Below, piece after piece: positions 7,414 through 56,033 of a stretch of DNA of 64,000 nucleotides (position 1 is its first letter; every line of letters begins with the position of its first letter). The stretch covers positions 186,001 to 250,000 of the forward strand of contig QPGO01000105.1 of assembly GCA_008632985.1 (NCBI GenBank), given 5' to 3'. The notes under the pieces were generated by a model, which was given only the letters and a program-made list of their open reading frames with translations, made no database searches and was not told where the DNA came from. This stretch comes from Psammoneis japonica. Its lineage: Eukaryota. Both the position numbers and the translations under genes were made by a program.

Positions 7414-7459
7414 CGTGGCACAGTCAGACTTATAACATGGTTACTACTCCAATCCTGGG

Positions 7460-25400: not shown

Positions 25401-26649
25401 ACGGTTTTAGTCGAATACACCGACTCTTCGATATTGCATGCAAACGCGATGGTTAGCAAATGTTGGTCGAAGGTACCCCAAAGGCTTTCAGTGAAACTCC
25501 TTTTTGCACTGGGCGCAATTGGACAGTACCGGAAAGAGATCAATACGCACCCTGCATCTGTTGAGAGTCCGCTTATTCAAAATGAAAACCAAGGATATAT
25601 TTGGCTTACTCCAATGGACCGTCATGAAGAATTGTTGGACGTCGGGGGCGGCGTGAAGCTCCCTCGTTTGGCACTGACCCTTCGCGGCTTTTGTTTGGTG
25701 TTTTCTGTTCGGGAGTCGACCATCCCCGGAGCAGGTTATGGTGTCTTTGTTCGAGCCGAAGACATGACTTCGGAGAAAAGGACGAACTTTCGATTGAAAC
25801 AGGGCGAGTTCTTGGATATGGGCAGGTACGCTCCGTTGCAGCCAGAAAACAAGGTCAGAGATAGTGTGTTTATGATGAAGAGCTATGTGCATTCCTTCAA
25901 GTGTGAGACGTATTCTTTCAATTCCGGTAAGTCAGCAGTCGAGTTGAGCGAGTTACCTGGTATGTGTTTTACGCCTTTCTAAAGTTGTGCTTTCGCATTC
26001 AGAGGATGAGGACTTTATGTTTGACATTACGGACGATTTCACGGCAGCTCTAAATGATGTGGCGAAGCAGCATATCCCAGCCTATGTGAACGAATGCAAA
26101 AAAGCTGACATCCCGACAGTGCTGGCTGAGTCTGATCCGGAAGGCAACGTTCACTACTTGTGTGGGGTGAGAACTGGGGAGTTCAATCTGGCTGTAGGCG
26201 TTGAGCAGGAACTTTTCATCTACTACGGCAAAGGCTATGAGTCTGCAAGGCTTCGAAATGGTTACTCGGAGCTCCCCTTACAAGAGCAGCAGCGTAGGCT
26301 TCAAGAGATGGAAAAGGATGACGACGAATACCTGGACGAAATCAACACCTTTTCGGTCGAAGACGTCAGCGCTTGTGTTGCTTTCTTCCGCCGAATGTTT
26401 CCAGAGGGCGGTAATTGGCATGCTGCTGCTGACAAGCTTGGAGTACCCGCAGGGAAGAGGGCTCTTGTCGTTTCCAAACGGCTCGCGAAACGAGCAATTG
26501 AGCTGAAGGAGGATGGTGAAGCTGTCCATTTTACCTTCATCGACGCCTCGAAAAAGCTTGTGGAGCTCCTAGAAACGCTTTTTGGCGAGGGTCGCTATCG
26601 TGCAATCGAAGGTCCTTGCGTGGTTCAAAGTAGTAGCTCGCTGGTTTGA
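22407..26649 (+). CDS. Tudor-CXXC-MBD-SET paralog 2 (three CXXC/MBD modules and a second Tudor-like domain), multi-exon
   Basis: PGLPLGW..LYSPTGKHFFS; VFCAWPNEHWYKA; STIPGAGYGVF; ELFIYYG. Confidence 0.8.
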
Positions 26650-27161
26650 TTTGTACGGAATGGGTTTGAGCGTGGCGGTCGAGGCTCGTCCGCGATAGTT
26701 TGCGATCTTTGTGTATTTTAGCATGTGTTTCAATCAACAATTTTGTTCAATAATATCGTCAAAGTAGTGAGGTGTTGTACAGTGGGCATGTCCTTGTCGT
26801 TCTCTACGGTCACTTTCGTATCGACCGATGCTGCGTGCACCGACTTGCAAAGGAAGCCATTCTGCCGGAAGACTAGCTGGGCGCTCTCCTGGTGGCATGA
26901 AATGTAGACAACATGAGGTGGTCTTTCGACAGCACATACCCTTGAGTCGACCTACATAGAGCCAGCTTCATTTTGCTTTCGTCTCTGAGATCGCATGAGA
27001 CACCGCATCATGCTTTTCACCCCGCGACAGACCTCCCAAGCCGAGAGTGCGCGCGCGCCGCCGAAATACTTTTCCGGGTTACTCTTTACTGAGCCGCGCC
27101 ATCCTTTTGCCCGCAAAACGAAAAGAGCTCACACTCATAAAACACTTGACACTGCGACACC

Positions 27162-30100: not shown

Positions 30101-30434
30101 TAAGCTGCAGGAGATGGAAAAGGATGATGAGGAATATCTGGACGAAATCAACACCTTTTTGGTCGAAGATGTGGCTGAGTGTGTCGCTTTCTTTCATCGT
30201 ATGTTTCCGCCGGGTGAGAAGCGGTATGTTCTGGCTAATATGCTTGGACTACGTGCTGGGAAACGGGCAATTTCGGTTTCTGAAAAGCTTGAAGAACGAG
30301 CTAGGGAATTGAAGGACTCTGGCGAAACAGTCCCTTTGTCATTGATCGACTCTTCGGCACAGCTGGTGGAAATCCTAAAGACCCTCTTTGGAAAGGATCG
30401 CTTTCGTCCGATTGAACATCCGAGCGTCGTCTGA
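27162..30434 (+). CDS. Tudor-CXXC-MBD-SET paralog 3, multi-exon (apparent 1-nt deletion near 28940)
   Basis: GTRVYALW..WYWG..VKFDDGD; RCQACDLC..CGQCVTC; GFPAGW..GRKFRS; SET motifs with EVFVNYG. Confidence 0.8.
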
Positions 30435-30592
30435 AATGATGGCGCACCAAGTTGAATAGGCTGAGAGCACAAAGATACGTGTATGGAGACACCTTGATCT
30501 ATTGTACGTGAAAGCGTAGGGAGAGCATGCAGTGGGTGTTTTGTACTATAGCATGTGTTTCAAACAACAGTCTTGTGCAACTTCCAATGTTT

Positions 30593-31719: not shown

Positions 31720-33310
31720 GATGTGAAATTTTGTGTGGGTGGCGGATCTTGTGGCGCGCGTGTGCACAGCAGCGTGCTGGCGTGCGTGGCTTCTTGCGCG
31801 ATGGAACGCGCAACGCCCTAAAATCGATCAATGAACTCCCCCTGGTAGAGACTGGCATCTGGGTGTGGTGTCTTGAATCTCGTTGGTGCCTAAACTCAAG
31901 CAAGATCTAGATCTTGAAAGTTGCCACTTGCACTGACAAATGGGGTAATCAACCAAGGGCAATTTTCTGATGTGTGGTTTGCATGTGTTGTCAGGCAGTT
32001 GTTTTGTGTTTTCTCCAATGTGGCATGAACAGATCCTCTCCGACACAGCAATGCAGCGCCTGTTTGCATCATCAAGGTGGAACAGCATCCCACTGTACTC
32101 ACCAATGCTGCTGTTTCCCACATGTTGCACTTGCTGATGCCGCTGTTTCTCACACCAGAATCATCACAGTGAGTCAAGTCAAGTGCACATCTGGCTCATC
32201 GCACAAAAAGATGTGCGCCAGCTGTCCCACCCTTGAAAGCCATGTTGTCTTCAAACTCACTTTCAACAATGACAAGCTTTGGCATTTGACCCATCAAAGT
32301 TGCAAGACAGCTGCCACCAAAGCTCACCTCATTGTCTCTGAAAGATGTCTTGTGCAAAGTGACAGTTTGCCCTGAAATTGTGGCTGAATGCTGCACAGCA
32401 GTCAGCAGCCCACCTCTGCCAGTGCCAACTGCTTCATTCCTGGTAAAAACACCATCTGTCACTGCCACCTGCAAAGCATCCTCAATGAACAGTCCACTGC
32501 CAGCATGCAACTTCTGTCCATTGAAAAAGATGGAGAGTTTTGGATGAGTGTGCTGTCTGCGGTTTGGATGAACAAGTTTCCACCTCCAAGGTCATGACGA
32601 CCTTCGTCGAATGAGCAGTCCAGCACCCTGTGATTGCCATTTGCAAGAACCTCTGCCACATCCTTCTTTGGTTTTCCCTCCTCTGAGACCAGCGCCAGCA
32701 AGGGAAAAATTGTTTCCAGACACGAGAAGATTTCTGTTGTCACCCGTGCTTGCCATCAAGCACATTTCTCAGATTCACAGCAAAGTGTCACACCTGACTG
32801 AGCAACGTTGATGGCAGATTGAAGATGGTGTTGCAGCTGTGTTTCCTCCACAGAAAGACACAACAGAGTCTTTTTTTGCATTGCCTGCTTTGGATTGAAG
32901 GTTGGAAAAGGTCGAGACACAAGAACCAGATGTCGGTGTGCGGCAGGATGGAGTTGGAGTCGGCTCTGGCAAAGGGGCACGTCGCTGAAAGAAGCAGTCC
33001 AAAGGGGTGACGCAGGATCCATCACAGACATGTCATCATCAAGGAACTTCTCCCAAAAGTTGTTGCTTTCAAAATGTGTTTCATTGGACATGCAGAGTTC
33101 TCCCTCTGCATCTTCTTCTGCTTGTGCTTTTCCTGCTGTTCTGCTGTTTTTGGATCACTCCGCTTGCACAGCATGAAGTTTGTCGCCTGCATTGCTTCAT
33201 TGTCAAACAGCACTGTGGCAGCCAACCAGCATGTCCTGTACATCCCATGATCATGCATCGTGATGGATTGACACTCATTTCTTTCATCGGTTTGTGAGGA
33301 GACTGGTTTT
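31720..33310 (-). pseudogene. TpA/CpG-depleted block with a degraded beta-helix (Pmp/pectin-lyase-like FxxN...GG repeat) gene
   Basis: FTRNEAVGTGRGG, FRDNEVSFGG and FEDNMAFKGG in ORF 32196-32510; fragmented frames; TA nearly absent. Confidence 0.55.
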
Positions 33311-36923: not shown

Positions 36924-39224
36924 TCACGACATAGACTTGTTGAGATAGCCATCGCGCAAAAGTCGACGCATTACCTTGTTGGACGCTGTACGCGGTAGCT
37001 TGTCGGTAATGACCACGTCACTAATCCCAAACAATGGATTCAGTTTGGTCTTGATGGAGAGTTGCATGGCCTTTTTTAAGGCATCCTTGTCCACGTCGTC
37101 ATTGCTTTCGTGGACGACGGCATAAATGACAAGCTTGCACGGTCCACCGCGGCTCACGGCAATGGCTGCCGTTTCCTGAACCACTTGTAGTAAATTGCAG
37201 ACGCGTTCAATTTCGACACTGCTTACTTTGATGCCACCGATATTCATGGTATCGTCGCAACGGCCGAGGGCCCTGTAATACGGAGAAGTAGAGAATTTGT
37301 CGCTTGAAACCATTTCAATTTCATCTCCATGTCGTCGTAGCACCTCGCCGTTGGGGCCCTTGCCCATGCCCTTGTAATAGGTATCATAGTGACTACGATT
37401 CAAGAGTTTAGTACTCAATCCAACCGACGGAGGCACGAGGCAAATCTCACCACTGACCGACAAGTTCGTTGTTATCTCGTTGTCGTCTACAAAGTCGCCG
37501 TCTGCATTACTTCTCAATACAAATTTGGATCCCAACACGGGCGAGGAGAACATGGATGGGACATTGGGCTGCACCATGGTGGACGATAAAAAGGAACCAC
37601 CAATTTCGGTTCCACCACAATACTCCATGACGGGCGCATAGCCCGGCACTCGAGACTGAAGCCAAAGGAAATTTTTGGCATCGCTCGCTTCACCCGTGGA
37701 TGAAAAGCGTGTAATGCAACTCCAATCACAACCGTCGGTAGCACCCTGTGCTTGCCACGCTTTGACGAGAGATGGAATGACGCCCAGCATGTTGACTTGG
37801 GATGCCTCGACAAACTCACAAAAGGGTGCCGTGCTGGTAACGCCGTTGAACAAGGCAATTGTGGCGCCATTGATGAGCTGGTAAATCAGCCAAGGGCCCT
37901 TGTATTGAATAGTATGAAAAGAACAACACCAAGAGGTGAGTAAGCGAACTGATTGGAAGAACCAAAACCGTGGCATACTCGCCAACCAAATAGAGATACA
38001 TTACCATCATCCATCCAATGTTACTCGGCCAACAAACAACCTCACCGGGGTGTACATCTTGATGATAATATCCATCCACGGCACACTTGATGGGTGTCGA
38101 ATGTGACCAAACAATGGCTTTGGTTCTCCCGTGGTACCACTCGAAAACAAAATGTTGCACGGCTCCATGCTATCCACCTTGATGGATGTAAATTCGTCAC
38201 TGCAATTTGCAATACAATCGGCAAAGGACATGTCTAGTCCGGGACGCAACGAAATGGACTCGTGCAAGTCTTTGCTTTGACGTGCCGCAAGACAAATGAC
38301 ATTCATGGACGACGACCACTGATCGTCGTCGCCACGGTCCGACTTGGTTTCCTTGTTTTCGTCATGCAAATCCTCCTCCTCCTCGTCGTCTTGCTGCATC
38401 AATATTTCATTGGCTTGTACGACACGGTCGTACAGTGGCAGAAATTTTGTGGTACCACGATAAATGACATCTTGTGTAAAGATGGCACGACACTTGGCGA
38501 GTCGACACCGTGTGGCAATTTCGCTTGCTGAAAAGGAATCGGCAATGGAAACCACGACACAACCCGCCTTTATGATTCCCAAGTAAATCGCCACCGCTTT
38601 GTACGTCATGGGCATGCAAATGCCAACCGCGTCACCATGCGTTAGTCCCAATTTAGTAATGGCATTTGCGACTTGATTGACGAGGGATTGCAATTGTCCC
38701 ATGGAAACTGTTTGTACGTTTCTTGGAGCGGATTCCGTGGCGTAGACAATTGCGGGTTGTTCGGAAGGATATTGGAGACAAGAATCCGATATATTGAAAC
38801 GTCCTTTTGGAAAGTAACTCATATCGGTAGCAATGTCTTCTCCCTCAAACGCAGTCAAGGGAGGCACGTCCCACTTGATGCCAATGGTTTGCATGGATTG
38901 CATCCAAAAGTCATTGCGCGACTCGACAGACCACTTGTAAAGCTCATGATAACTTGTAAAGCCATTCTTGATCATGGCTTGTTCAATGTTGGTAGTTTTC
39001 TTGTTGTTGTTGTTATTGTTTGGAATCCATGATGGAGCGATACTGTTGTTGTTGGAAGCATACACTTGTTGGTAGCACTGTTCATGAATTTCAATGGGAA
39101 TCGAGGGAGAAAGCAAGTCACGATGCAACACGGCCCACACCTCCATGGGAGTAGCAACGTCACTGCCACCGGCAAGCTCGCGTGCCTTGCGGACAAGGTC
39201 GTTGGCGCTCATGGTGGTTGCCAT
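36924..39224 (-). CDS. Acetyl/acyl-CoA synthetase (AMP-forming, plant AAE17/18-like); intron ~38004-37899; apparent 1-nt deletion near 38120
   Basis: ILFSSGTTGEPK, YCGGTEIGG, HGD, GRCDDTMNIGGIK, LPRTASNKVMRR. Confidence 0.9.
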
Positions 39225-40345
39225 GGTTGCTGTTTTTGTTCTGTTGTTGTAGTAGGAATATCCAATGCAACAGACAAGAACAACACAAGAAGGTTGCGTG
39301 GTCTCATTTTTTCTCACAAAAAATACGTGGCACTCAATTGGCTTTCTCGTTGAAATATTATTTAAATACTTGGATAAATATATTCACGTACAAATTCTAC
39401 ACGCGATCTTTGTATCATGTGACTTCTACTCGAGAGTGATACTACTGGATTTATGATTCTATTAGCCCATGTATGCAATTATTACTCACTTCTTGGAGGG
39501 AAAATCCACGCAATATACAAAAAATTCAGGTGCTGAAGAAGAGCATTGAAATTTCGAAAGCATAAACGCCTTTTCCTTCATCAGAATTTTGGCGACGAGC
39601 CAATGAGCAAACCAGCATCGACGCAAGTGACAATGACAACCACAGTATGAAACAACAATCATGACGACGACAACAAATACCACCAGTGACCTTCCGAAAC
39701 GGCAAAGAATACGAAGAAAAGAAGATCAGAGCACACTTTTCCTGTTTTGTTTGGCAGCCTTGGCCATGGTGTGCCACACGCATTGCATTCACAGGGCGGC
39801 TGTCAAGTTGTCGTCGCCGAGTAATGATTTGCATCTGAAATCCTTTCAAGCACCAAGAATACAAAACGAATCGACGAATCGAAAATTTACAATGGGACAA
39901 GTGCTGAAAGCTGCTGTTGCTGAAAAGAAAGAGAAAATGGCAAAAGAACAAACAGCACGGCAAAAACAGCAACAGCACACCGGTCAACCAACACCCGTAA
40001 ATGAGCTCATCACAATGTACCCAGACAAGAAAGAATTATTGGAGATTTTAAGAAACGCCGGAATCACAGAATTGGACGACGAGACGGCATTGAAACTTCC
40101 GACATGGTCCGACGTGACGGCACTCTATGGAACCAAACCCATCCTGTACGGATTGGATCAGTGCAAAGTATTCCGACAAAGAATCGACTTGTCCAAACGC
40201 CACTTGGGGATTGCCGGAACCTTCAATGCGGGTGCCAATCTCTTGTTTGAATTGCTCGAAGCCAATTGTCGTGGACCCCGGGGTCGCATGGCGGATCATC
40301 AAGTTCCGTGGGGTAAACACAATCCACCCCTCAATGAAACGATTC

Positions 40346-40636
40346 TGCCAAGTGGCGCCAAGTAATGGTATAAAGTGGCGTTGTAAAGTTGACTGTTGCT
40401 AATGTTGTGAGAAGAAATGAAAGAGATTCGGCTGCTCCGAAATCTCGTAGAATTAATGCTAAGAAACCGCGTAGAAATATAAAGAAACAATCTTTCGAGA
40501 GGCATCGAGATGTATCGAGAAAGGAGAAGAGGTTTCTAGAAAGTGTCATCGTTGACATCCTTTTGACACTTTTGACACCAGGTTGACACCCACGAATGAA
40601 TATACGAATGAATATAGATGACCGTGATATTCGGCA
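40346..40636 (-). repeat. 3' LTR
   Basis: 280/291 identical to 44331-44621 by manual alignment. Confidence 0.97.
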
Positions 40637-40657
40637 CTCGCTTCCCCAATTGAGACG

Positions 40658-43600
40658 TTAGAAGACAGGGTGAAGACGGCGGATATTGATACGTTCAGTG
40701 ACGTGAGGCGAGCGCTGGATGGTAACGGTTCCATTGGTATGGACACGTACGATACGGAAAGGACCATCTTTGGTGTTGAGTTTGCGTTGGATGTCTTTGG
40801 TCATAACGAAGACTTGATCGCCGATGTTGTAGTCGTAAGTAAGACGTTTTGCGTTTTCGCGGAGATTATTGCGTAGGACATCGCGCTTGCGACGGGTATT
40901 AATCATTTTCCAGTTCGCAAGATAAGTAGCAGAAATGACCATGTCTCGACCGAAGACAATTTGTCCGGGAGACGACATAAGGGCAGTATGGTAGGTACTG
41001 CGCAAGGCCCATGCAACGGATTGCAAAATTCCATGAATTGTGTCTTCATCATGATCGCGAGAAGGGAGATCCATCGCACGGAGAGAATCGGCTATCACTT
41101 GATGAATACGTTCAACGAACGCGTTGGCTTGAGGATTCTTGATTGTTGTAGGTTTCGGTTTAACACCATAACTGTAGAGGAGATCTGTAAACTCGGAAGT
41201 GAATTCGGAACCGTTGTCATAAATGACAATTTCTGGTCGCGGATAGCGACAAAACCACTCGCGATCGACGATAAGTGAAATGTCTTCGGACGTTTTGAAC
41301 TTATAGTTCGCGAGTTCGACCCAACGGGTTGCGACATCAATAATTGAAACGGCTCTGATTTTGCGATCGACACCATTTTTGTCGGTATACGTCCAGGGAC
41401 CGAAAAGATCGACTTGAGTTGCCTGCCAAGGTTTATAAGTAGTATCTGGAAGAGGTAATTCACCATAGTTTGCCGTAGTGCGCTTGGATTTGGAACACGT
41501 GCGGCACTTACGGACAAAAGTACGGACTTTCATCTGCATGTCGCGAATGTAAAAATGTGAAGCCAAAGTTTGGCAGGTGCGATTAGCACCAGGATGGCAG
41601 AGAGTTTCATGGTGCCACCGTAGAACTGCAGGAAAAAGCGTTGGAGGGAGGACAATCTTGTTCTTGTAAAGGATGATCTGTTTTCCGTTGAATGGTTCGG
41701 CTGAGTGGGATTCGGACTTGTCGAGTCGTTGCTGAAGAGCAGAATCTTTTTTCTGATGGTCGGCGATAATGTCGAAAGTAACGGGGAATATTGAAGGATC
41801 GATTTCCAACGAAGTCATTTCCTCGCAATCGCTTTGATCGACTTGGACAATGGGACAGCGACTCAAAAAATCAGCCACGACATTCTTGTGGCCTGGTGGG
41901 TGCTCGAAAGAGCAATCGCATTCCTCGAGAAGCAAACGCCAGCGTTTGACGCGTTCTGACTTGAATTTGTCAAATGTGAGATTTTTGTGATCGGCAAACA
42001 GGTAGCATCGATGACCAAAAAGGATGCTTTTGAAATTTTCGGTCGTTTCCACGAGCGACAGTGGCTCTTTTTCCATTGTCGTGTAGTTTCGTTGCGCTTG
42101 AGATAATTTTCGGCTGTAGAATGCAATTGGCCATTCGTCATCGTCAAAATCTTGAGTAATTGCTGCACCAAGTTGACAATCACTCGCATCCGGATAGATG
42201 TTGAAAGGTTGAGAGAAGTCGGGGAATCGGAGGAGGATTTCGCGCGCCGTGATTTTTTTCATCGGATGCCGTTCGAGACACTCGTTGAGTTTCCGTAAAT
42301 CGGATGAGAAACGGATGCCACCGCTTTTCTTCGATCGGAAAAGACAGGGTGCGCCCCAAGGAGAGTGAAGTTTGCGCGCAACAACATCGATTTTTTCCAA
42401 TTCATCCACTTCTTTGCGAGCCATGGGATGTGACGCTTGCGGAACAGTGTGAGCTTTCGCACAGTGTGGACGCGATCCTGGTTTCAGGGTCAAATGGACG
42501 GGTTTACCGGGTGCAGCTCCAAGTGTACCATCGAATAATTGCGGGTATCGTCCGAAGAGTTCGATGAGTTGGTGCTGTTGATCGTTGTCAAGGTGTTTGC
42601 AGCGTAGAACCATGTCGCGACAATTGTGCTTGTCGTACGCATTGCTCGTCATACCTCGAACCTGACGGTTGACGGCATTCTGGAAGAACTTGGGTAATTC
42701 AGCATCGCCGGGATGAATTGCATTAACTTCGACTTGGTCGAAAGAGCCCTTGGATCGCATGGATAGGGTAACATCGCCCCACGTGATTGTTTGATGTCGA
42801 AAATCAAAAACGAGTCCCATTTCTGTGGCGGTTTTTCTTCCGATGATAATGTCGTGTTTTCCTACGGCTTTGTCTTCCACACAAGCATCGACGGAAACCT
42901 TCTTGGACGATGCGAAGTCTGGGAACTTCAATGTCAGCGTCGCAATCTCGTGTAGATTAACGGCACTGTAACGGCCTTTAACGGGAACGTTACATTTACG
43001 GATTTTGTGAGGAATCCCGCGAAGGGCTGAGCGCTTCACAAAATTGCGATTTGCGCCGGTATCGAGCAGAGCAACACGGAACTTGTGCATTCCAGAATGA
43101 GTGTCAATCATCTGGACACGCGCTTCCGTGGTAAGATTGTCTTCTACTTCGGATTCGATGGAATCGTCTAGAAGAGACGTGACGTCTTCAAAAATGTCGT
43201 TGACATCGTCTGACGCGACGCTGTCGACATCGTTAGAAGCGGAGCGACTGGCTTTGGAGTCCACATTATTGTTTTCGACGTTCCGTGTGCGGCTCCGTGT
43301 AGGATAGCGGTGTGTCGGCTCGTTTCGAGAGTTATTTTGTTGATTCGGCGCATTCCGATTTGCGCGGTTCCGCTCATAATTTTCACGTTCACGACGGATG
43401 ATGTTGCACTCTTGACCGTTCGGATGTACAACGCCATGGATTGGACATGTTTGTTCACGATTGTTTTGATTCCTGTTCCTGGCATCGCGATTTTGGTCGT
43501 TATTCTGGCCGTGACGCGTGTGTCGACCGTTGTTGCGTTGATTCCTATTGTCATTGCGTCTGTTGTTGTCGGTAGACCCTTTGTCACCACGTCGTTCCAT

Positions 43601-44257
43601 ACGTCGGAGAGTCTCGTAGTGTTGAGCTTGGTCGTTCAAGTTTAAGTTGCGAAGACGGGCTTTAGTCTGAGTTTCGGCCCATGATCTTGGTCCACATTTT
43701 CGAAGGATTACGGATAATTCCGCTTCCGTGAATGACGGAACTCTTTCGGCGTCATCTTCGGTTGGCGTAGGCATGATATTAATCAACTTATTAAAGCGAC
43801 GGATGTCATTAACAAATGACTTGACAGTTTGGTTCCTGGGTTTCTTAAGGCTTTGAAGCCATTCCTTAGTATCAAGGGCAATTTCTCTATCCATGTATTG
43901 GAGTAGAAATTCTTCACGACAAGTATCGAATGTAACTTGGTCGCGGTTTTCGTAATCGTCTACGACGATTTCCCAGTCGTCTTTTGGTGTTCCGGTCATA
44001 AGTCTGGTCACGAGCCGGAAACGTGGCTGTCCTTCAGCCGTACCGAGATCGTTGATAAGTTCATCGAAGTTTGACCAGAAGGTAAGAACATCTTCCGGTT
44101 CAGTTGAAGCTAACTTACGTACCTCGATCGTAGTTTTAAGCCCATCTGGATCGTCAGGATCAATGGGGCTTTCAAAAGACACGAATTGGTCTTTGCGCCG
44201 CTCTTCCTCAGAGCGGTCAGGACGCTTAAGTTCGAATGGGCAGTTTTCTGCTGACAT
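40658..44257 (-). CDS. Gag-Pol polyprotein (protease, truncated RT, RNase H, integrase)
   Basis: LLDTGA; SPWGAP..DLRKLN; DAS..LGA, DHKNL, NVVADFLSR; zinc-finger HHCC, VDLFGP, YDNGSEF, NPQANAFVER; GPF. Confidence 0.93.
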   Translation of the reverse strand: MSAENCPFELKRPDRSEEERRKDQFVSFESPIDPDDPDGLKTTIEVRKLASTEPEDVLTFWSNFDELINDLGTAEGQPRFRLVTRLMTGTPKDDWEIVVDDYENRDQVTFDTCREEFLLQYMDREIALDTKEWLQSLKKPRNQTVKSFVNDIRRFNKLINIMPTPTEDDAERVPSFTEAELSVILRKCGPRSWAETQTKARLRNLNLNDQAQHYETLRRMERRGDKGSTDNNRRNDNRNQRNNGRHTRHGQNNDQNRDARNRNQNNREQTCPIHGVVHPNGQECNIIRRERENYERNRANRNAPNQQNNSRNEPTHRYPTRSRTRNVENNNVDSKASRSASNDVDSVASDDVNDIFEDVTSLLDDSIESEVEDNLTTEARVQMIDTHSGMHKFRVALLDTGANRNFVKRSALRGIPHKIRKCNVPVKGRYSAVNLHEIATLTLKFPDFASSKKVSVDACVEDKAVGKHDIIIGRKTATEMGLVFDFRHQTITWGDVTLSMRSKGSFDQVEVNAIHPGDAELPKFFQNAVNRQVRGMTSNAYDKHNCRDMVLRCKHLDNDQQHQLIELFGRYPQLFDGTLGAAPGKPVHLTLKPGSRPHCAKAHTVPQASHPMARKEVDELEKIDVVARKLHSPWGAPCLFRSKKSGGIRFSSDLRKLNECLERHPMKKITAREILLRFPDFSQPFNIYPDASDCQLGAAITQDFDDDEWPIAFYSRKLSQAQRNYTTMEKEPLSLVETTENFKSILFGHRCYLFADHKNLTFDKFKSERVKRWRLLLEECDCSFEHPPGHKNVVADFLSRCPIVQVDQSDCEEMTSLEIDPSIFPVTFDIIADHQKKDSALQQRLDKSESHSAEPFNGKQIILYKNKIVLPPTLFPAVLRWHHETLCHPGANRTCQTLASHFYIRDMQMKVRTFVRKCRTCSKSKRTTANYGELPLPDTTYKPWQATQVDLFGPWTYTDKNGVDRKIRAVSIIDVATRWVELANYKFKTSEDISLIVDREWFCRYPRPEIVIYDNGSEFTSEFTDLLYSYGVKPKPTTIKNPQANAFVERIHQVIADSLRAMDLPSRDHDEDTIHGILQSVAWALRSTYHTALMSSPGQIVFGRDMVISATYLANWKMINTRRKRDVLRNNLRENAKRLTYDYNIGDQVFVMTKDIQRKLNTKDGPFRIVRVHTNGTVTIQRSPHVTERINIRRLHPVF

Positions 44258-44330
44258 GTCTGGTCAGGACAATATGATCGGTAGACATATCTCAAGAGAG
44301 ATGAATAAGTGTTTGGGAGTAAATTTACTA

Positions 44331-44621
44331 TGCCAAGTGGCGCCAAGTAATAGCATAAAGTAGCGTTGTAAAGTTGACTGTTGCCAATGTTGTGAGAAGA
44401 AATGAAAGAGATTCGGCTGCTCCGAAATCTCGTAGAATTAACACTGAGAAACCGCGTAGAAATATAAAGAAACAATCTTTCGAGAGGCATCGAGATGTAT
44501 CGAGAAAGGAGAAGAGGTTTCTAGAAAGTGTCATCGTTGACATCCTTTTGACACTTTTGACACCAGGTTGACACCCACGAATGAACACACGAATGAATGT
44601 AGATGACCGTGATGTTCGGCA
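44331..44621 (-). repeat. 5' LTR
   Basis: Matches 40346-40636; followed on the + strand by TSD GATTC. Confidence 0.97.
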
Positions 44622-45871
44622 GATTCGTCTCCAACGAAAACCAAAGGGATACGAAGCATTTGACGATGTCAATGAAATCTTTCCAATCGTCACAATTCGT
44701 AATCCCTACTTTTGGATGAAGGCCATTTGTAAAAAGCCCTGTGCCGTACGATGGCTTCACGACAACAAGCTGCATTGTCCCAATCTCATTCCGACAAAAC
44801 AAGAATTGCAAAACAATCGTCGCTTTCAACCCAACCATCCTGTACGTGTCGGTGTTTGGTGTCAAAAGACATGGGTCATTCATCACGATTCCCTAGCACA
44901 CATGTGGAATGACATTCACGAATTCTACAAGAATCAAGTGTCCTTTCCCCGCGTCATGGTTCGAATGGAAGATTTGATCTTCTTTGCACCCCAAATCATT
45001 TCCGAGTTGTGCACGACCTGTGTCGGTGGGACGTTGTTGGATCCACAAAAATTTCAATACGCGACAACCAGTGCCAAACCCAAGCATTTCAAAAACGGTG
45101 CAACCGGTACCGGTTTGGTGGATGCCATGATCATGTACGGGAACGCATCACTTCAATGCGAGGGGCGTGCACGGGATGATTTGATGTTTGCAAACAAGAC
45201 GCTATCGAAAGAACTGATGGAGACATTTGGGTATCAGTACGTGCAAATATAGTAGAATTGGAATGAGTGTAAAGTATGAGAGAGCTGCTCCACAAGTCTA
45301 AATCATGGATACACCGTGTTTGTGTGTTTTTTTGGCTTGGCGCTTTGGAGTTGTGCCGCACCTCAAGTCGTTCTGTAGGGCCTAAGATGTGCATGCTTAA
45401 GAAGTATTTCCCCTATACTCTCTCTATGGAGCTAAAGTGGCTCTACTAGAATACTTCTGCTCTCTAGAGAGAATATAACAAAGCTATGGTCGTTTTCATT
45501 CGCGGGAACCGATCCAGATTGGAGATAACGGTAGAAGGCAGGACCGTCACACGACATGACGTCATAAACTACCGTTGATCCAAGACCAAACTTATAGTAA
45601 GTACGATTGAAAACGCGATCCAATTAGAGCATGGCGCTCACAATTTTTACTCAACGCATCGCAACGAATTTTTGGGAACCAACACCAAATCGAACAGCAC
45701 CGTACTGTAGGAAGAATTACGACACAAAGGAGCGAAGAAAAAGAAATTTCGAGATAGATACGCACTGTTCAGACACCAAGGGTTTCGGCATTTGTCCACT
45801 TCATTCATGCCAGTGTGTCTCCCGCAAAAGAAAAAGTGCGGCTGCCAAAACGTTCATTGTGACAAATCAAG

Positions 45872-46924
45872 ATGAAGAGAGGGCCTTTGCGCTCAATCCT
45901 TCATAGATTACCCTTCTGGTTGCTGGGAATAGAAGGCGTGTACCTTTTCTTTTTTAGTGCCCAATACAACGGTCTCTCTGTTTACTTCAATCAACAAGCG
46001 ACCGAGGCCAAGACGACAAGACGGGCACATCACATTCTAGACTGCGACGGTGAAGGTTCGGCATGCGCATATTTTTATCCAACTGAATTCTTTGAAAGTC
46101 CAAGTGGCTTGGGTTACAAACATCGAGCGGCCGCCCAACAACAGCTCTACGGTCATGCTACTCGGACCTTTGATGCTAATTGGATTCGGGCTCGAAACCG
46201 CTACAAACAACGCAACGAAACAGCATACCCGCCAAACGACTTTACATATATACACGTTAGGAAGGCCGGTGGAATGACCATGAAACAAACCTTTTGGAAG
46301 TTTCCGTATCGAGAGGTTGGAACAAATTACACGTCGGATCCAATTTACACCGCAAAGAGCCGATACCGCTTGGAACAAGTCGGAGAAGAAGCCTTCGTGT
46401 CGGAAATGAAAGAGCTTGCCGAATCAACCCTGTTCTTTACCTTTGTTCGAGATCCCTTTTCCCGCTTTCTTTCTGCCATGGGACAATTTGCATCTCGAAT
46501 CTTGTCATATGCAGAGCTGGACTGTCCTGAATTGAAGCATTTGAATACAAGTGACGTCAGGACGTATGCTCAACAGGAGATTCGGTGTGTACTGCGTAGC
46601 AAAAAGAAGGGAATAGAAGTCGATGAACATTTTGTGCTTGCAACACACGAAATGTATCAAATGATGTTTGGGACAAACGCAAAAGTGGCTGTTTTGCCCT
46701 TGGCAAACATTACCGACTTTATGGCTACGTTGCAGGTGTACAACTTACAAGTCAATGTTGCCAGGGGAGTAAAACTGAAGTACAAGAATGTTGACATATT
46801 GGAAGGCGACATGATTCGCGACATTTGTGAGATTTATGAACCGGACGTTCAAATGTTGCGAACGGTTGGTATCCCGGTTCCGCAGTGTGATGAGCATGTG
46901 CCAATTGTTCCTGCCAAGCAATAA
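45872..46924 (+). CDS. Sulfotransferase family protein (type II membrane)
   Basis: Signal anchor; YIHVRKAGGMT, FTFVRDPFSRFLSA, DEHF. Confidence 0.8.
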   Translation: MKRGPLRSILHRLPFWLLGIEGVYLFFFSAQYNGLSVYFNQQATEAKTTRRAHHILDCDGEGSACAYFYPTEFFESPSGLGYKHRAAAQQQLYGHATRTFDANWIRARNRYKQRNETAYPPNDFTYIHVRKAGGMTMKQTFWKFPYREVGTNYTSDPIYTAKSRYRLEQVGEEAFVSEMKELAESTLFFTFVRDPFSRFLSAMGQFASRILSYAELDCPELKHLNTSDVRTYAQQEIRCVLRSKKKGIEVDEHFVLATHEMYQMMFGTNAKVAVLPLANITDFMATLQVYNLQVNVARGVKLKYKNVDILEGDMIRDICEIYEPDVQMLRTVGIPVPQCDEHVPIVPAKQ

Positions 46925-48052: not shown

Positions 48053-48468
48053 CGTGTTGGTAGCTAGAAGTACTAGTGAAATCGACGAGAGCGAATGATA
48101 TGGGCAGCGTGTCTCGTGCTATCGCTTTAGGAGATGTCTCTCTGCTATCGTATTCCATCATGATTCTTACATGGAAGTTATGTTAGTTTGTACATGGTGT
48201 GATTAGAGTTGACCGCCCTGGTGAAGAACCTCACATCGTGCGTTGTGCATCGTGCTGCGGCGTTTTCGGCTATTTTTTTCGATTTTTCATTGTTTATATA
48301 CATTATTAAATAGAAATAATTATAATTATACTTTACAATTAACGAAGGACAAGCATCACACCGATCCAGCGATTGAACTGAAGATCCTTTTACTGTATGG
48401 CAAATTCTCACATTTTCACCGGAAGTTGAAGGGTGGATCAGCAAGAACTTCAGGTTGAAAGGGAGACA

Positions 48469-49230
48469 ATGAAGATTGCTAATCTTTTTCCGATTCTTGT
48501 CGCCGCTGTCATCCCGTCGGCCGTTGTTGCGGTCGAGCCGACAAGTTCAAGCAGTGGGGTTCAAGTTTATGAGAACTTCTTCTCAAACGATGACATTGAG
48601 ACGATTTACAAGAATCAGAAATCGTCCTCGAAGACTGCGTCTTGGGAGATGCAGTACCGATCGTCTCATTGTGGTGCTACTTTCCTATCAAAGGAGCACA
48701 TCAAGAATCTGAATCAAGTTGTCAATGGTGCTACCACCAAGAACGAAGACCACGACGCGCAGTACGTCATTATGAAAACCATGACCGAGACAACCCCGGC
48801 GCATGTCGACGGTGCCATGAAGGCGGATGGCTCATGTGGGCCCAGTAACGACGACGTTGCCTTTATCTTCTTGAATACCAACCCTGACGCAAATTTTGTT
48901 ATTGAAGGAATGGAAGAACCCATCCCTGTCAAGGAGGGCAGTCTTGTTACGTTTCCTGGCACCAAGTTCCGTCATAACATGGTTGTGAAGAGCGGCTCGG
49001 TGAAGATCGCTGGTCCGTTTACGAAAGCATATCCTCATCGTCTGGCTGGAATGCAACAAACAGGCGGTAATATTATCCGGTGGTTCATTTCGACGCTCAA
49101 GCAATGCTTCGGTAAGGGGAAGGACCCCTTGAGAAACCGCCAGTTGCTGGCTGAGCATTGGCTCCGCGGTGGACTAAACGAAAAAGTCGACGTTACCGAG
49201 AAGGACAATAGCGTCGCCTTGGAAGAATGA
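48469..49230 (+). CDS. Secreted protein, possible 2OG-Fe(II)/cupin-fold oxygenase
   Basis: Signal peptide; HVD...FIFLN...PVKEGSLVTFPG..RH spacing. Confidence 0.55.
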   Translation: MKIANLFPILVAAVIPSAVVAVEPTSSSSGVQVYENFFSNDDIETIYKNQKSSSKTASWEMQYRSSHCGATFLSKEHIKNLNQVVNGATTKNEDHDAQYVIMKTMTETTPAHVDGAMKADGSCGPSNDDVAFIFLNTNPDANFVIEGMEEPIPVKEGSLVTFPGTKFRHNMVVKSGSVKIAGPFTKAYPHRLAGMQQTGGNIIRWFISTLKQCFGKGKDPLRNRQLLAEHWLRGGLNEKVDVTEKDNSVALEE

Positions 49231-51544
49231 ACATAGCTCAGAGTTTCTTTTGAGCTTGAAGATGGAGTTAACACCCTTTTTGTGTAGCTCTCTAGACTTT
49301 AGTAGGAAAATGATTGTACGTATTGCAATGCATGCAGCGCTCTGATTTACATTTTTGCAATGTGCTTTGGGCGCGTTAAGTCTCAGTAAGCTGCCTGACG
49401 TCGCCGATGCTTGCCGGTTACAAAAAGCTCAGAAAATGCAGAGCTGGGAGTGTGTCACTCTGACCCTTCTGTCATGATGCCATTTCTCTCCTTGCCAATG
49501 ACAAAACCAAGCGACACTTTTAGACCCTGTTGTTCCCTTTGAGAAGAAATGCAGCAGGAGCATTCTGAGTGCTTGCTTGACTTTTGTGTGTGTGTGCTGA
49601 AGATGTGATGATGCCTCTCTTGATTTTTTGGAATGAAATTGTCAACTCCTTTTGTGTGCACTGTACTTGGCTTCATCCATCATTGCAGATGATGTCAAAT
49701 GTCAATTGGAGCACTCTGGAGTTGAGATCTCATTCAAGGATTTGTGCTCTTCCATGATTCTGGCAAAGCCACCAAGCCCCTTCTTGTCTCATCAGAAAAT
49801 GCAGTGTGTTGTCAGCTGCTGCAGAGAGTGCAACAATTGCAGCAGGATCCAAGTTCCTTCCTGGCAGAAATCCTTTTGATGGCAGAAGTGCATTTTGCCT
49901 CAAAAGTTGGCCCAGTTGGAGCAGCTCTCTTTGGTTTTTTGTTCAAACAGTCTGCTTGCACCTGTGTTTGATGCACATCATTTTTCATCCAAGCTTTCTT
50001 CCCAAGTCAATTGCCATTTCCAGCAGTGGAGTCATTGCAGCTGAGTTTGCCAAGATCTTTCAAAATTTGGGCACAAAATGGCAAATCTCCACAAAGAGCT
50101 CTGTGACTTGGCTCCACAAAGTGCAGCTGATGAGAAGATCTTCTTGACGGGAGCACACAATGCCAATGTTGCACTTTTGTTTTCAATGAATTGCTTTTGC
50201 AAGCTTGTGAAGTTGAGTTGCTCAAACCTTTGCTCTGTTGAAGTGTGGCCTCATGTCAAACAAAAAAAGGTGATTGTTTGCCCTCACAGTTGTTTGTCCT
50301 TGAGAAATTGGCAGCGGTCAGGTGTGCCAGGCACTCACACATTTGCAGGGGTGGCACATGTGAGCCAATTTGTTTGGCATGGAGCTTGTTTTTGAGCATT
50401 GTCTCAGCAGCAACTTGTCATGAAATGCACACCAAGTGGCTGTCATTGGCGGTGCCAGACCAGGCAGATGTGCCAAGAGAGCAGCAAACAGCTGCCAGAA
50501 AAGCTGCCACAGCCAGGAAGCAGGCATCTTGAGCAAAGTTGTTTCCTTGCTTGCAGTGTCTGAAAATGAATTGTGAGCTGTGAGTGATCTCTGTGAGCAG
50601 AAAACCAGATTTCATCACATTCATGCCAAAGCACAGTGCCATGAGACCACAGACCAGCTTGGGCCAGGCTGAGTTTGAAAACTGAGAAGCTCAGGATGTG
50701 CTTGCATTGAGAAGCTCAAGTGCAACCTTCAAAGGTGAGGTGATGTTGAGAGCAGTTGTCATGAAGAAAAAGTGGCTGGTTTTTGTGTTTTGGGGGGCAT
50801 GGGCAGACTTGGTTGCTTTGCAAACAAGGCCTCATTCAGCACCTTCCCCCTGCTCTCTGCCCCAATGACAACAAGTGACCACAAAATGCTCTGCTGACAA
50901 ATGAAATGTGCCACTCCCAGAAACAAATCACACCATTGACCCTGCAAAGCTGAGAACCACCATGACTCCGGACAAGGGTTTGCAAGTGCCACAAATGAGC
51001 AGAAGGTCTCTTGGAAGGAGCAAACGTCATCTTCTTCTTTGTGAGCATGAGTGTCTTTGAGTGAGATGACTTTGGCAAAAGCACAATTTTTTCCATGAAT
51101 TTTTTAGGTCATGAGTGAGTTGTGGTTTGAGCTGGCATCTTAGAAGTGCTTTCAATGGGACAACAACCAAAGCACCAGCAATGACAGCACAGATGAGATT
51201 CATTTTCTGTTGCCTGGCACAAGAAACTTGGACTCCTGTCCCAGCACAAAGACTCAGCATTGTTTCTGTGCACACAACTTCCTTGATGATCTGTCCCATT
51301 GCAACACCTGGGACAAAAGTGACAGGAGGGCAGAACCATCTGGGCAAAGATTCAGTTCTGCAGAAGTTTGTGCCAGCTTTTTGTGCAAGGCAAATGCACA
51401 TTGTGGAGAGTTGGAAATCTGACAGACAACAATGACAACATCAGAGCAACACATGTGCATGCATGCCACGTGCCAATCCAGTCATTGAAAACTCCAAAAC
51501 AAAAGATCTTTCTTGCAGTTCTCATGATTTCTCCACGAGAAGCA

Positions 51545-52320
51545 CAGTTGAAAAAAGACAATGAAGATTGCCAATCTTGTTCTCATTCTTGTCACCACTG
51601 GACCTTCTCAAACAATGAGAAAACATTGTGGTGCTGTTCTCCTGTCAAAAGAGCAGCACATTGAGAACCTGAATCATGTTGCCAATGGCGCTGCCACCAG
51701 CCAAGGACTGTGATGACCACAATGCACTGCGCATCATTGTGAGGACCATGACCAAGATGACCCTGGCACATGTTGATGGTGCCATGAAGGCAGACAACTC
51801 ATGTGGGCCTGGCAATGACAATGTTGCCTTTGACTCCTTGAGTGCTGGTGACCCTGATGGCGTGCAAATTGTGTTGTTGAAAAGGAGTGGAAGAACCAAT
51901 CCCTGTCAAGAAGGGCAGTCTTGTTGCACTTCCTGGCACCAAGTTCCACCATCACATGGTTGTGAACAGTGGCTCAGTGAAGATCACTGGCCCCTTGGTT
52001 TGCAAAAGCATGTGCTCATCATCTGGCTAAAACCACTGACACAGGAGGTGGCAATTTTTTTGTTGGCTTGTTTTCAACATCAGAAAGTGCCAGCTGCTGC
52101 TGGCATGGCTTTGGCTCTGCAGCAGACTGAGCAAAAAGGTCAATGTTGCCAAGAAGGACAATGCCATCACCTTGGAAGAGTGAGTGCAGCTCAGAGCATC
52201 CATTGCAAACAGCCTGAAGATGGAGGCAACATTTTTGTTGAGTGGCTCCTGCAAACATTGGCAGGAAACTGATTGCAAGGTGTGTTGCAAAGCAGCAATC
52301 TGATTTGCACTGCAATGTTT
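51545..52320 (+). pseudogene. Hypermutated duplicate of the 48469-49230 gene
   Basis: gacaatgaagattgccaatctt, catgttgatggtgccatgaaggc and ccctgtcaagaagggcagtcttgtt are collinear with the intact gene. Confidence 0.92.
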
Positions 52321-55300
52321 TTTGCTCACGCCAAGTTGCAGCAAATTGTGCAACACAGCTGGTGGTTGCTGGTTGCATGAAAAAGCTGAGAATTGTGCAC
52401 TGTTGGGGCAAACCCTGCACCAGGATCATCGCAAACAGCTGCAGCATGACCACACAAACCTTGTTTCCCACTCATGTCCAGGCATCTTTCTTTCATCTGT
52501 TTCCATTCCAACATGAAAACCAATGAGAGACATTGTTTGGTTTTGCCATTGATGGAAAGGAGAAAAGTCAAATGGCATTGAACAGGCTTCCACATGTGTT
52601 TCATGACAGAATGACTGGGGTCACAGATCTCCCAGCTGCACTTCATGGTGTCAAAAAAACATGACAGCAGTTGCCAAACTCACAGGAACACATTCATTCA
52701 TCTGGCAGAAAGTTGACAAATGTTGACGAACAGCAACAAATCCTCCAACTCATTTTGGCCTGAGAACAAGATCAACAGATGGAGAAAAAGCACAGTGCTT
52801 GTGTGGCCAATGGCAAACCAGCAACAACAAGTGCCATGAAAGAACTGCAACAAGAGTTGATGGCCCAGCACCCTGACAATCAGATGCCACAATGCAGAGG
52901 GACAGCACGTGTGCATGCAACTGTGGCTCATTAATTTTTTGACACTTCAACCCCCTCTCATTCAAAATGGGAGGGTTGTTGGTGCTCAATCAACATGCTG
53001 CCATTGCAGCCCCATTTTTGTTTTGCTGTTGAGCACTGCAGGGCTGTGCAAACCTCTTGACACCCATTCTCTGCACCTTTGTGCTTGCTGTGCTTTTTGT
53101 GTGTGTTTGATGTGGCACTCCTTAACTCCAACATGTTCTGGATGATGTTGCACACTTGACAAACAACACAAGGTGTGCTGCTGCAAAATGATTGTGGCAT
53201 GCACACATCAAACTTGAAAAAGCCCTTTTCACATGTGACAGATGTGCTCTTGTTTGGCAAAACTGGCAATGAGCATGAGAAGCTCTCTGATGACAGGTCA
53301 CACAAAATCATGCCATGTGTGCTTTGGTCAAATGTGCTCCAAATCATGTGATGAGGTTCGTGGCTGCTGATGGCCAGGTGTCATGTGGGTTGTTTTTGCA
53401 AAAGCTTGACAGACACCCAGCTCTTGCCAACTTCTCATTTGATCAAGAACAAGCAAACACTTTGACCATTGCTTTGTGTTTGTGCATGTCACACATGTTG
53501 TGGTCACAGCATGAGGGCACACAGTTAGTTGTGTTGAAGAGAGTGCTTTTTCGTCTCCACCTTCTCTCCCCAAAAACACTCTTTTGGGCCACATCAAAGC
53601 TTCAGATGTGAAATGTGTGCCACTGATGTCTCCAACACCTGTTTCAGCAATGTGCTGGTTGCAAAAATCTCACTCACAAAATGCTTGACACAAAGCTTAC
53701 AATGCACTGGTGCTTGACATGCAAAGAATGCAAGCCCATGACATGTTTTAGAAAACATGATGAGCTGCACTAGATGCACGCATTTGACCTTGGTCCAGCA
53801 CTCACAAGACATCACAGAGTGCACTGACATTGGTTGCAGCCATCACAGTGCATGGTGCTCAGCTCTGTCATTGTAAGACACATCATGCAAACAGCCAGTC
53901 AAATGCCACCTGCATGATGTTCTTGTGGAAAAAGTCACAGCTTGTCCCCCCCCCCCCCACACACACAAAAAGCTCAACTTTTGTGAAAATCAACAGTGTT
54001 GTCAACCTTGCAACAGGGCACAGCTGACAAGCAGTGGCATTTGAAGCTCCAAATGTGCAGCTTCTCTTGTGCCAGCACAAAGTGGCCCTGACAAGGGCTT
54101 GACAAATGCACAAGAGTTTGGGGGTGCTTTTTGAGGCAGATCAAAATGACGCAACATGCTGGAAATGCAAACAACTGGCTCAGCTTTGACTGCAGCATGC
54201 AGATTCATCCTCAAAGGCCATCACAATTTGACTGCTGGGGCCTTCATGATGGAAGTGGTGGGCAACCAGATGATGACCACCATTGTCTGCTTCAATGTCA
54301 CACACAAGCAGAACAGCACAAAGATGAGCATCTGTGATGGAAAGCTTGCATGTCTGGCAAGTGCTCCACATGCTCATTTTGTGAGGGAGAAATGTCCATG
54401 AGAGATTTTGCTGCAAAAAAGGACACAATCATTGCCCCAACATTGCGGCAGAGATGGGTGTTGTGACCAACTGGCATCATCTCCAATTGTGCCATCAGGG
54501 AGAAATGCAAACAAGAAACTTCAGCTGCCCTGCAGAAAAGAAGAAGCACACACAACCAAGAAATGTAATCTCAGGGGGCAAACTTTGCACTTGCTTTGCA
54601 GCAGAGTGCTGCACGCACCAAACAATTTCATTTGCAGTGCAGGATGTGTAGAGCAGGGTGAACATGACCCAAAGAGTGGCACACTGTCAGTGGTCTCATT
54701 TGCCAAGCTGCAGTGCTCACTGCCACACAAGCAAGTCCAAAGCAACTGGCATTGTTTGGCGCAGAAATGCCATGCTGTTGAATGTTGCTCATCAAGCTGA
54801 GGGTGAAAGCATGTCACATGCATGACAGAAAGCACAGAATCTCCTCCCCTCGTCCAAGTGAACAGCAGCCAAGCAAGAAAACAGCAGGCACAAGGAGCAC
54901 AAAATGCTCCATGAGACAAGTGACCCTCATCAAACAAGAGCAAAAATTGAAGTGCAGGGCTGATGTGACAGCTGTGGTGTGCAATCTGCGGCACCAGGTT
55001 GTGCTCTCCTGTCATCAGAGCAAGACATCTGGTGCTCTGCAGCCCTTTTCATGGGGGGATTGTGTGCAGCGTGCACTGCACTGGCAACTGCTGGCAGATG
55101 CTGGCAATGTTGAGGGGCTCCTCTGCCAATGTGCAACAACACAAGTGCCACTCATGATCTGCAGAAGATGTGCACAAGCTCAGACTCATTCTGCTGTGCA
55201 GGCACATCACAGCACAATTGCTTGCCAGCCACAAGTGAGCTGAGTCACAAGGATTGTGCACAGCCAGCTGCCCCCCACCACAGCCACACCTTTTCTGGCA

Positions 55301-55469
55301 AGCAAAGCCCCCACGCACATGATGCAACCTGTTTTGCAGGAGCAAGGGTTTGCTGAGAACCACAAGAGATGAGCTTCTGGGGCAAAAACCTTCATTTGCA
55401 GATGAAAACACTCACACATGTGTGCACTGTGTGAGTGCACACTGCCTCATGCTGCAGCTGATAAGTTCT

Positions 55470-55470
55470 C

Positions 55471-55503
<33 letters not shown>
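55470..55503 (+). repeat. (CAG)n microsatellite
   Basis: Direct reading. Confidence 0.9.
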
Positions 55504-56033
55504 CGAGCTGACTCGGGGACAGTGCTCTTGCAGTTGTTGGCAACAACAACAAACTTTTTGTTGCACCCCTGCTCAACGTGCCAGTCTCTCCCAATGTTGA
55601 GCATGCCAAAACTGGCAAGAAGCCTTGGAAACTCCCCAAGATCTTTTTTGAAAACTGTGTTTTGAGACAAACCACGATGACAAGAGAGAATGGAGAGCTG
55701 CACAGCAGTGACGAGCCCAGTGCTGGGGGCACACTGGGGTGTTTGCAACACAACACATCACTCAGTTTGCTGTCTTCTCATTTGATCAACAAGCAAATGC
55801 TTCAATCAGCACAGGATGAGAGAGCATTGCGGTCTGCTTGCCTCCCCTCCCCCAAAAACTCATGCCGAGACGAACGTTCGAGACATTTCAAAAATGACTT
55901 ATTGTTACAAAATGAACAATGTTCATCTTTGAACATAATCATTTGATTATGATGTCCCTAACGCCTATTTTGGCGATACGGCCCCCGCCCGGCCTTCCCT
56001 TGTTGAGACAAATCGGGTCAATTCAAAGACCAC

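Follow-up and report, generated by a model that had tools for sequence, protein, structure and literature searches.

A reverse transcriptase-deleted Ty3/gypsy retrotransposon of Psammoneis japonica with a probable footprint of TpA-specific hypermutation

Hypermutation restricted to the dinucleotide TpA was described in integrated viral DNA of Bigelowiella natans followed in mutation-accumulation lines (Mettrop et al., bioRxiv 10.64898/2026.01.13.699255). In the parts of that preprint on which we draw, two integrated viral regions accounted for 231 of the 302 new mutations, 230 of these 231 were A>G or T>C, all on TpA, and the rate was ~1000 times the background; clusters poor in TpA and rich in CpA+TpG were enriched for transposon-type domains, and the authors propose an ADAT2-like DNA adenine deaminase. 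Our literature searches returned TpA-restricted hypermutation only in this one 2026 preprint, for B. natans, and nothing in diatoms. Here a stretch of 64,000 nucleotides from Psammoneis japonica (GenBank assembly GCA_008632985.1, contig QPGO01000105.1, positions 186,001 to 250,000 of the forward strand), referred to as the window and numbered from its first letter, was analyzed around a Ty3/gypsy-type long terminal repeat (LTR) retrotransposon that lacks its reverse transcriptase (RT) core. This element is probably a young copy partly hit by TpA-specific A:T>G:C hypermutation of chromosomal DNA. The signature is directional, specific for one dinucleotide, patchy, present on both strands and absent from host duplicates. 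The original prediction, which saw conserved tyrosines of Pol replaced by Cys or His in a patch, stood as to direction, specificity, patchiness and the absence of new stop codons, and found no support as to strand processivity and inactivation by missense. The parts of the element are as follows.

40346..44621, minus strand: Ty3/gypsy-type LTR retrotransposon, RT-deleted, 4276 bp (LTR pair and self-match, Pfam domains, diatom relatives)
44331..44621, minus strand: 5' LTR, 291 bp, TG..CA
40346..40636, minus strand: 3' LTR, 291 bp, TG..CA
40341..40345: target-site duplication GATTC, left, 5 bp
44622..44626: target-site duplication GATTC, right, 5 bp
40661..44263, minus strand: single open gag-pol frame, 1201 codons (first Met 44255-44257; stop TAA 40658-40660)
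43742..43999, minus strand: weak gag match (Retrotrans_gag, E=0.002, under the Pfam cut-off)
43052..43069, minus strand: putative protease motif LLDTGA, read in the translation
42254..42277, minus strand: in-frame deletion junction LERHP/MKK (alignment gap and no RVT_1)
41600..42510: TpA-depleted patch, ~0.9 kb (TpA counts; CpG unchanged)
41921..42259, minus strand: RNase H (RT_RNaseH, E=1.6e-24), within the TpA-depleted patch
41480..41647, minus strand: integrase zinc-binding domain (Integrase_H2C2), with WYH changed to WHH at 41612-41614
41132..41407, minus strand: integrase core (rve), Tyr kept
40637..40657, minus strand: purine-rich run adjoining the 3' LTR, its sense strand ending GGGGAAGCGAG

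The two direct LTRs share 96.2% identity, and their 11 differences, located at 10 TpA sites, are all transitions with zero transversions; another 11 TpA sites are kept in both. Inferred ancestral TpA was lost at 8 of 21 sites in the 5' LTR and at 3 of 21 in the 3' LTR. As controls we took four ordinary host duplicate pairs from the window; of their differences 55% were transitions and 45% transversions, with 114 of 561 transitions lying at such TpA sites. Set against this background of ~0.20, 11 out of 11 (0.20^11, ~2e-8) show that the LTR pattern is not the background spectrum, in agreement with the TpA specificity first proposed. Comparison of kept and lost TpA sites by eye revealed no obvious flanking-base preference.

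The direction of change was read from other copies of the family in X1, a k-mer contig set from one study (657,387 records, the longest of 315 kb), with 40 of 328 rows compared; X1 may be the sample behind the assembly of the window and so is no independent evidence for that assembly. The family is high-copy, its X1 contigs adding up to a depth of 370-2660 along the element. TA is the majority reading among family copies at 40377 (depth 1088.5 of 1126.1) and also at 40458 (855.3 of 1433.3), where this 3' LTR reads TG, thus carrying G at two positions at which most copies carry A. A single site reads TG in one LTR and CA in the other with a family majority of TA, so that both LTRs were hit at the same TpA. 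Within Pol, an abundant X1 contig has TAC (Tyr) at residue 853 against CAC (His) in this copy. The Tyr state in relatives together with the LTR majority of TA supports a change from TA to TG or CA, as had been claimed. The 1201-codon frame is open, and no sense codon can be turned into a stop by A>G or T>C changes, which bears out the earlier statement that no stops were created.

All motif strings on which the original prediction relied were located in the translation of 40661-44263 (minus strand): PHCAKAHTVPQASHP at 42425-42469, DASDCQLGAA at 42161-42190, LLEECDCSFEH at 41900-41932, FLSRCP at 41852-41869 and RWHHETLCHPGANRTCQT at 41567-41620, along with YDNGSEF (41201-41221), LLYSYG (41165-41182) and TYDY (40829-40840), by which the integrase core keeps its Tyr as predicted. 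Tyr columns were defined as those at which the five closest relatives all read Tyr (n=24). Cys or His occupied nine of them, eight of the 12 in residues 538-900 and one of the 12 outside (Fisher P=0.009), whereas the same count made by leaving out each of the five relatives in turn gave 0/29, 2/31, 0/28, 1/30 and 3/25. Among 85 relatives, Cys at positions 548, 696, 782, 784, 803 and 897 was found in one case (1/85, at residue 784), and His was absent at 605 and 884, present once at 853, six times at 788 and four times at 600. The Tyr replacement is thus beyond chance (8/12 vs 1/12) and rare in relatives, and the possibility raised at the outset, that relatives would carry the same Cys and His, was not borne out. 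Some details of the prediction fared less well. The change in the DASDY string is seen, but Tyr follows DASD in only 35 of 85 relatives, and the second Tyr of EEYDY is found only in the closest clade (7/85), with Pro in 69/85. Relatives also carry the Cys residues of LCHPG, where it is common, and of PHC, so that neither is clearly derived.

A similar distribution emerged from single-base departures from strong clade consensus. These numbered 77, and TA to TG or CA was their largest class (15), 13 of which fall in residues 538-884; 11 lie within 41600-42510 and two just outside, at residues 538 and 548 (42620-42652). L734P and V701A fall on invariant or nearly invariant columns. Direct counts gave 13 TpA in 41600-42510 vs the 38.3 that the ratio in the remaining internal region predicts (Poisson P=2e-6), with an unchanged CpG ratio (1.33 vs 1.46 in the rest). 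The claim of patchiness is thus supported, although the depleted stretch ends near 42510-42650 and does not extend to 43100 as first described. The patch encloses the deletion junction at 42254-42277. No inverted repeats were detected in the element and no Rfam families in 39000-46000, so no structure of these kinds accounts for the position of the patch.

Elsewhere in the window, four blocks are almost devoid of TpA.

451-6050: TpA-poor block, 5.6 kb, 14 TpA (TpA counts)
21301-22100: TpA-poor block, 0.8 kb, 7 TpA (TpA counts)
31951-33300: TpA-poor block, 1.35 kb, 3 TpA (TpA counts)
49401-55900: TpA-poor block, 6.5 kb, 16 TpA (TpA counts)

By block they contain 0-11 TpA per 500 bases vs 15-30 elsewhere, with rho TA of 0-0.1, TG and CA at 1.5-2.2 times expectation, little CpG and sharp edges. 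The loss of CpG in these saturated blocks had gone without mention in the original prediction. Block 451-6050, with 14 TpA in 5.6 kb, keeps about half of its CpG; since TpA is lost and CpG intact in the element patch, this intermediate state indicates that TpA loss precedes CpG loss. The changes could be followed in an intact host gene (48430-49434) aligned with a diverged copy (51490-52460) inside a TA/CG-free block, a paralogous pair of which one member only is mutated. The 35 TpA of the gene correspond in the copy to 18 TG, 10 CA and no TA (7 gaps or other dinucleotides), and its 61 CpG to 26 CA, 15 TG and a single CG (19 gaps or other dinucleotides). Between the mutated copy at 51.5-52.5 kb and its source there are, in addition, 53 transversions and some gaps.

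Strand use was compared at both scales. On the sense strand, the 13 TA-type changes of residues 538-884 are 6 A>G and 7 T>C in mixed order, and the 69 converted sites in a saturated block form 34 strand runs, no fewer than in shuffles (runs test P=0.66). Alternation in the patch and random strand choice in the block argue against a single edited strand, whether RNA or DNA, and also against the strand processivity that had been suggested. The pattern fits hits that fall on duplex DNA independently of one another, at a palindromic dinucleotide, and argues for a DNA-level process limited to domains.

The element itself has the domain order of a gypsy Pol with one step left out. LLDTGA, which we take to be the protease active-site motif, lies upstream (the Pfam search of the element frame gave no protease match) and is followed by RNase H, Integrase_H2C2 and rve; the same search gave no RVT_1 match, and in the alignment ~225 RT-core residues present in all relatives are missing after LERHP. 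Judged by its sequence, the copy is a deletion derivative of a Ty3/gypsy family and not an autonomous member. The proposal that the mutations inactivated it by missense is not supported for this copy, the RT core being already absent. An X1 contig with 983 letters between 42262 and 42622, vs 359 in this copy, indicates that RT-bearing relatives exist in the same organism. Protein searches returned 97 matches (best E=0), all with RVT, RNase H and integrase Pfam domains; the nearest are gypsy-type polyproteins of 1415-1426 residues with 47-55% identity in the alignment, and the named sources among the matches are diatoms (Chaetoceros, Amphora, Cylindrotheca and Cyclotella). A short-fragment protein search of the family gave 77 matches, the best at 67% identity, and no close copies. 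The purine run next to the 3' LTR is likely the polypurine tract. The sense strand after the 5' LTR (44300-44330) lacks at its start the TGG that is usual in a tRNA primer-binding site.

The insertion interrupts a host frame, split into 39637-40345 and 44627-45252 and paralogous to 57750-59030, which reads 445 codons without a stop when the element and one copy of the target-site duplication are removed. In one X1 contig 40340 is followed immediately by 44622, and 5 letters could belong to either flank; this contig represents the empty site at a depth of 28 vs ~50-90 in the flanks. These observations fit a recent, heterozygous insertion in a host gene. As a rough check, the B. natans rates, converted by our own arithmetic, correspond to ~1e-5 per TpA per generation, at which 11 events in 42 LTR site copies would take tens of thousands of generations, a time compatible with a heterozygous insertion. 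Comparison of the host flanks with the paralogue at 57.7-59.0 kb gave no significant sign of spread at 57-63% identity, with TA-type changes of 8 vs 4 on the right and 3 vs 3 on the left.

Other features of the window touch on the blocks and the controls. Within the first TA-free block, a 502-codon frame (2549-4054, plus strand) is without any Tyr; in its features it resembles proteins with a Man1/Src1 C-terminal domain (atlas score of 0.91, no more than a lead), it has no Pfam match, and it may represent a gene of host type that was hypermutated yet would still be called by gene finders. The same block holds direct repeats of ~185 bp (508-696 and 4440-4617), 3.9 kb apart, with 79-84% identity and 96% when transitions are left out, possibly the LTRs of an element that is old and saturated. 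The control duplications of host genes, both segmental and tandem, lie at 7455-16720, 19219-30455 and 59108-64000 and show 67-93% identity and an ordinary spectrum.

Relatives in other data were also compared. Other X1 family copies differ from this one by 69 A>G, 70 G>A, 90 T>C and 43 C>T changes and by 4-10 of each transversion type, with many of the differences among the rows compared lying at TA or CG sites. Across 75 metagenome loci that encode relatives, most rho TpA values were 0.6-1.0. In one metagenome contig (L068, 3444 bases, match at 736-2541), rho was 0.42 for TA and 0.27 for CG with TG/CA at ~1.6, and its gypsy Pol carries Cys or His at 6 of 11 conserved-Tyr columns, including the change of WYH to WHH. 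Four control metagenome loci keep their Tyr, with His at 1, 1, 1 and 3 columns and no Cys. The joint Tyr loss and TA/CG depletion in L068 indicates that the footprint is present in an unrelated data set. Two further loci, L059 (3901-4500) and L037 (2401-3000), are TpA-poor (rho 0.07-0.29) and were not counted as additional cases because the segments are gag/LTR region with normal CpG and offer no Tyr evidence.

A mechanism consistent with these data would convert A on either strand of a TpA site, leaving TG or CA. In coding sequence this would turn TAY into TGY or CAY, ATA into ATG and CTA into CCA, and never yield a stop codon. The process would act in delimited domains, here a 0.9-kb patch with a lighter hit on both LTRs, and elsewhere would run to saturation in blocks of 0.8-6.5 kb from which most or nearly all CpG is lost too. 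It presumably acts on DNA after integration and may be host-directed, against silenced or foreign DNA. Adenine deamination to inosine, read as G, by a deaminase of the ADAT2/TadA type is the suggested chemistry, with oxidation via a modified thymine as an alternative. The CpG loss in old blocks may reflect the usual decay of 5-methylcytosine, or the same enzyme may have a side activity on cytosine.

Several points weigh against this interpretation. For lack of an ancestral sequence of the copy, losses in the patch were deduced from protein conservation and TpA density; the X1 contigs do not show this copy's letters at the patch positions compared (41674-41707 and 42157-42162), so that the patch itself is without independent confirmation and is the weakest point of the argument. 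Enrichment of TG and CA in the patch is only slight (1.02 and 1.17 vs 0.98 and 1.07 in the rest), and only 2 of the 10 LTR sites were polarized by other copies among the rows compared. The blocks may be foreign or repeated DNA, but one holds a host-like gene copy and another the frame resembling Man1/Src1 proteins (a lead only), and a Pfam search of 73 frames of at least 90 residues from the four blocks gave no credible family. As to timing, editing of double-stranded DNA before integration could also make the two LTRs diverge.

A broader reading, which we put forward tentatively and hold to be clearly less likely, would assign both losses to a single host system that removes TpA and CpG, the two self-complementary pyrimidine-purine dinucleotides, from marked DNA, either a dual adenine/cytosine deaminase of the ADAT2 type or a 5-methylpyrimidine oxidase. 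Equally speculative is its extension, according to which the system would act in sub-kilobase bursts and extend from there to clear entire domains of TA and CG. Found in a diatom as well as in a chlorarachniophyte, it would be an old defence of the SAR group (stramenopiles, alveolates and Rhizaria) that disables invaders but leaves their frames open.

Among the alternatives to hypermutation of this copy, the one that survives best, though improbable, is that the patch was inherited, either as a mosaic formed during reverse transcription by template switching between the RNAs of a heavily TpA-mutated and a cleaner copy, or from a deleted parent that was already mutated. This would still require the same mutation process, acting on a different copy. 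Recombination between co-packaged retroelement RNAs is established, the patch surrounds the deletion junction at 42254-42277, and other copies of this high-copy family show their own losses of TA and CG. The LTRs of this very copy have nevertheless diverged at TpA only, so the process acted on the copy itself; abundant contigs among the rows compared do not carry its patch letters, and the RT-bearing contig is 16-17% different (34/195 and 30/185 letters) and hence no near parent.

The absence of the patch letters from the X1 contigs, at the positions compared, would equally suit an artefact of assembly or base-calling, in which long-read base-calling misreads densely modified DNA (5-methyl-CpG and a modified TpA) as TG or CA and the errors escape polishing in repeats, and miscalls of A>G and C>T at methylation motifs are known from nanopore consensus sequences. 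We regard this as very unlikely, however, as k-mer contigs such as those of X1 (657,387, up to 315 kb) are not expected of noisy reads and themselves display TA/CG to TG/CA differences among copies as well as some depth for G at 40377. The unrelated metagenome contig L068 shows the same Tyr loss and TA/CG depletion, transversions and gaps, too, set the mutated gene copy (51.5-52.5 kb) apart from its source, and in the parts of the B. natans preprint drawn on the signature was seen de novo with short reads.

Still less credence is given to RNA editing before integration, that is, A-to-I hyper-editing of the genomic RNA by an ADAR- or ADAT-like activity, followed by reverse transcription. TpA would fit the 5'-U preference of such editors, and clustered A>G changes are typical of hyper-editing as far as the accounts drawn on go; but both strands are changed, in mixed order, where only sense RNA is copied, the two LTRs made from one template differ at TpA sites, and sequence in the window that is not a retroelement has the same signature.

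That the Cys and His residues are functional, in a lineage-specific, non-autonomous subfamily under selection, can practically be dismissed, for although the 1201-codon frame is open and the invariant catalytic Asp/Glu and zinc-finger His/Cys are kept, Cys occurs once among 85 relatives at these positions and His rarely, the TpA loss (13 vs ~38) goes beyond Tyr codons, L734P and V701A fall on invariant or nearly invariant columns, and an open frame is expected anyway of changes that cannot make stops.

TpA-specific hypermutation of chromosomal DNA can also be set beside other processes that alter mobile elements. ADAR hyper-editing resembles it in converting A to G with a 5' U/T preference and in clusters, but has RNA as its substrate, and its changes would be strand-specific once reverse-transcribed; to our knowledge, ADARs are known from animals only. 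Hyper-editing of RNA by ADAR or ADAT enzymes, fixed by retrotransposition, was rejected because both strands are changed and the LTRs differ at TpA. The CpG decay of methylated transposons likewise gives TG and CA from CG, as in the saturated blocks, but leaves TpA untouched, whereas in the patch CpG is intact (1.33 vs 1.46); with a rho CpG of 1.33 it was rejected for the patch, its pattern being found only in the old blocks. Ty3/gypsy elements of diatoms, known in the literature as GyDi, share 47-55% identity with this copy and the order protease, RT, RNase H and integrase, and differ from it in that it is without the RT core and carries Tyr to Cys/His changes.

The repeat-induced point mutation of fungi (RIP), as presented in the accounts drawn on (PMC2621366, PMC7296669), also introduces DNA transitions with a dinucleotide preference, confined to segments, and disables mobile elements. 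Its direction is the opposite, since RIP turns C:G into T:A at CpA and so makes TpA and stops, whereas here TpA is destroyed and no stops arise. RIP was accordingly rejected, as TpA falls while the frame stays open, only one of two paralogues is mutated and ordinary duplicates are untouched. APOBEC editing of vertebrate LTR retrotransposons, as presented in the source drawn on (PMC4866542), is likewise a deaminase-type hypermutation fixed in retroelement copies, but proceeds by C>U in minus-strand cDNA and leaves strand-specific G>A changes. Editing of this type was rejected, because here both strands carry A>G and T>C changes at TpA and the two LTRs have come to differ from each other.

If the same footprint is indeed present here, the process is not a one-species curiosity, and it is found on a retrotransposon insertion that is still heterozygous. 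Retroelements would then be attacked as well as viruses, patches smaller than an element would be possible, and the process would run to completion, leaving kilobases without one TA. For gene prediction, long open Tyr-free frames may be called as genes, and dating of insertions by LTR divergence would be badly inflated. A natural series from light to saturated would become available for work on targeting and chemistry in ecologically dominant algae.

The closest comparison is with B. natans, again limited to the parts of the preprint drawn on. In both cases the changes are almost only A>G or T>C and on TpA, on either strand, as found here in the LTR pair (11 transitions, 0 transversions). In both they are confined to delimited regions, where rates in B. 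natans are far above the rest; here the patch and the blocks are set against the ordinary spectrum of the four host duplicate pairs. Both show long-term TpA depletion with CpA+TpG enrichment, which here is found in the blocks and is slight in the patch, and in B. natans TE-type (transposable element-type) Pfam domains are enriched in TpA-poor genes. The differences concern the host, which is of diatom type (its gene matches Nitzschia and Pseudo-nitzschia at 64-67%) while B. natans is a rhizarian, and the targets, an LTR retrotransposon and blocks with host-like gene copies as opposed to giant-virus and virophage inserts. They extend to the size of the sub-element patch (0.9 kb) and to the CpG loss of the saturated blocks, CpG, stops, tyrosine and retrotransposons being absent from the main text of the preprint as drawn on. 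The mutations were observed de novo in B. natans and are known here from finished sequence only. Taken together, the likenesses make it likely, on this comparison of sequences, that the copy is a further case of TpA hypermutation, in this instance in a diatom and on a retrotransposon.

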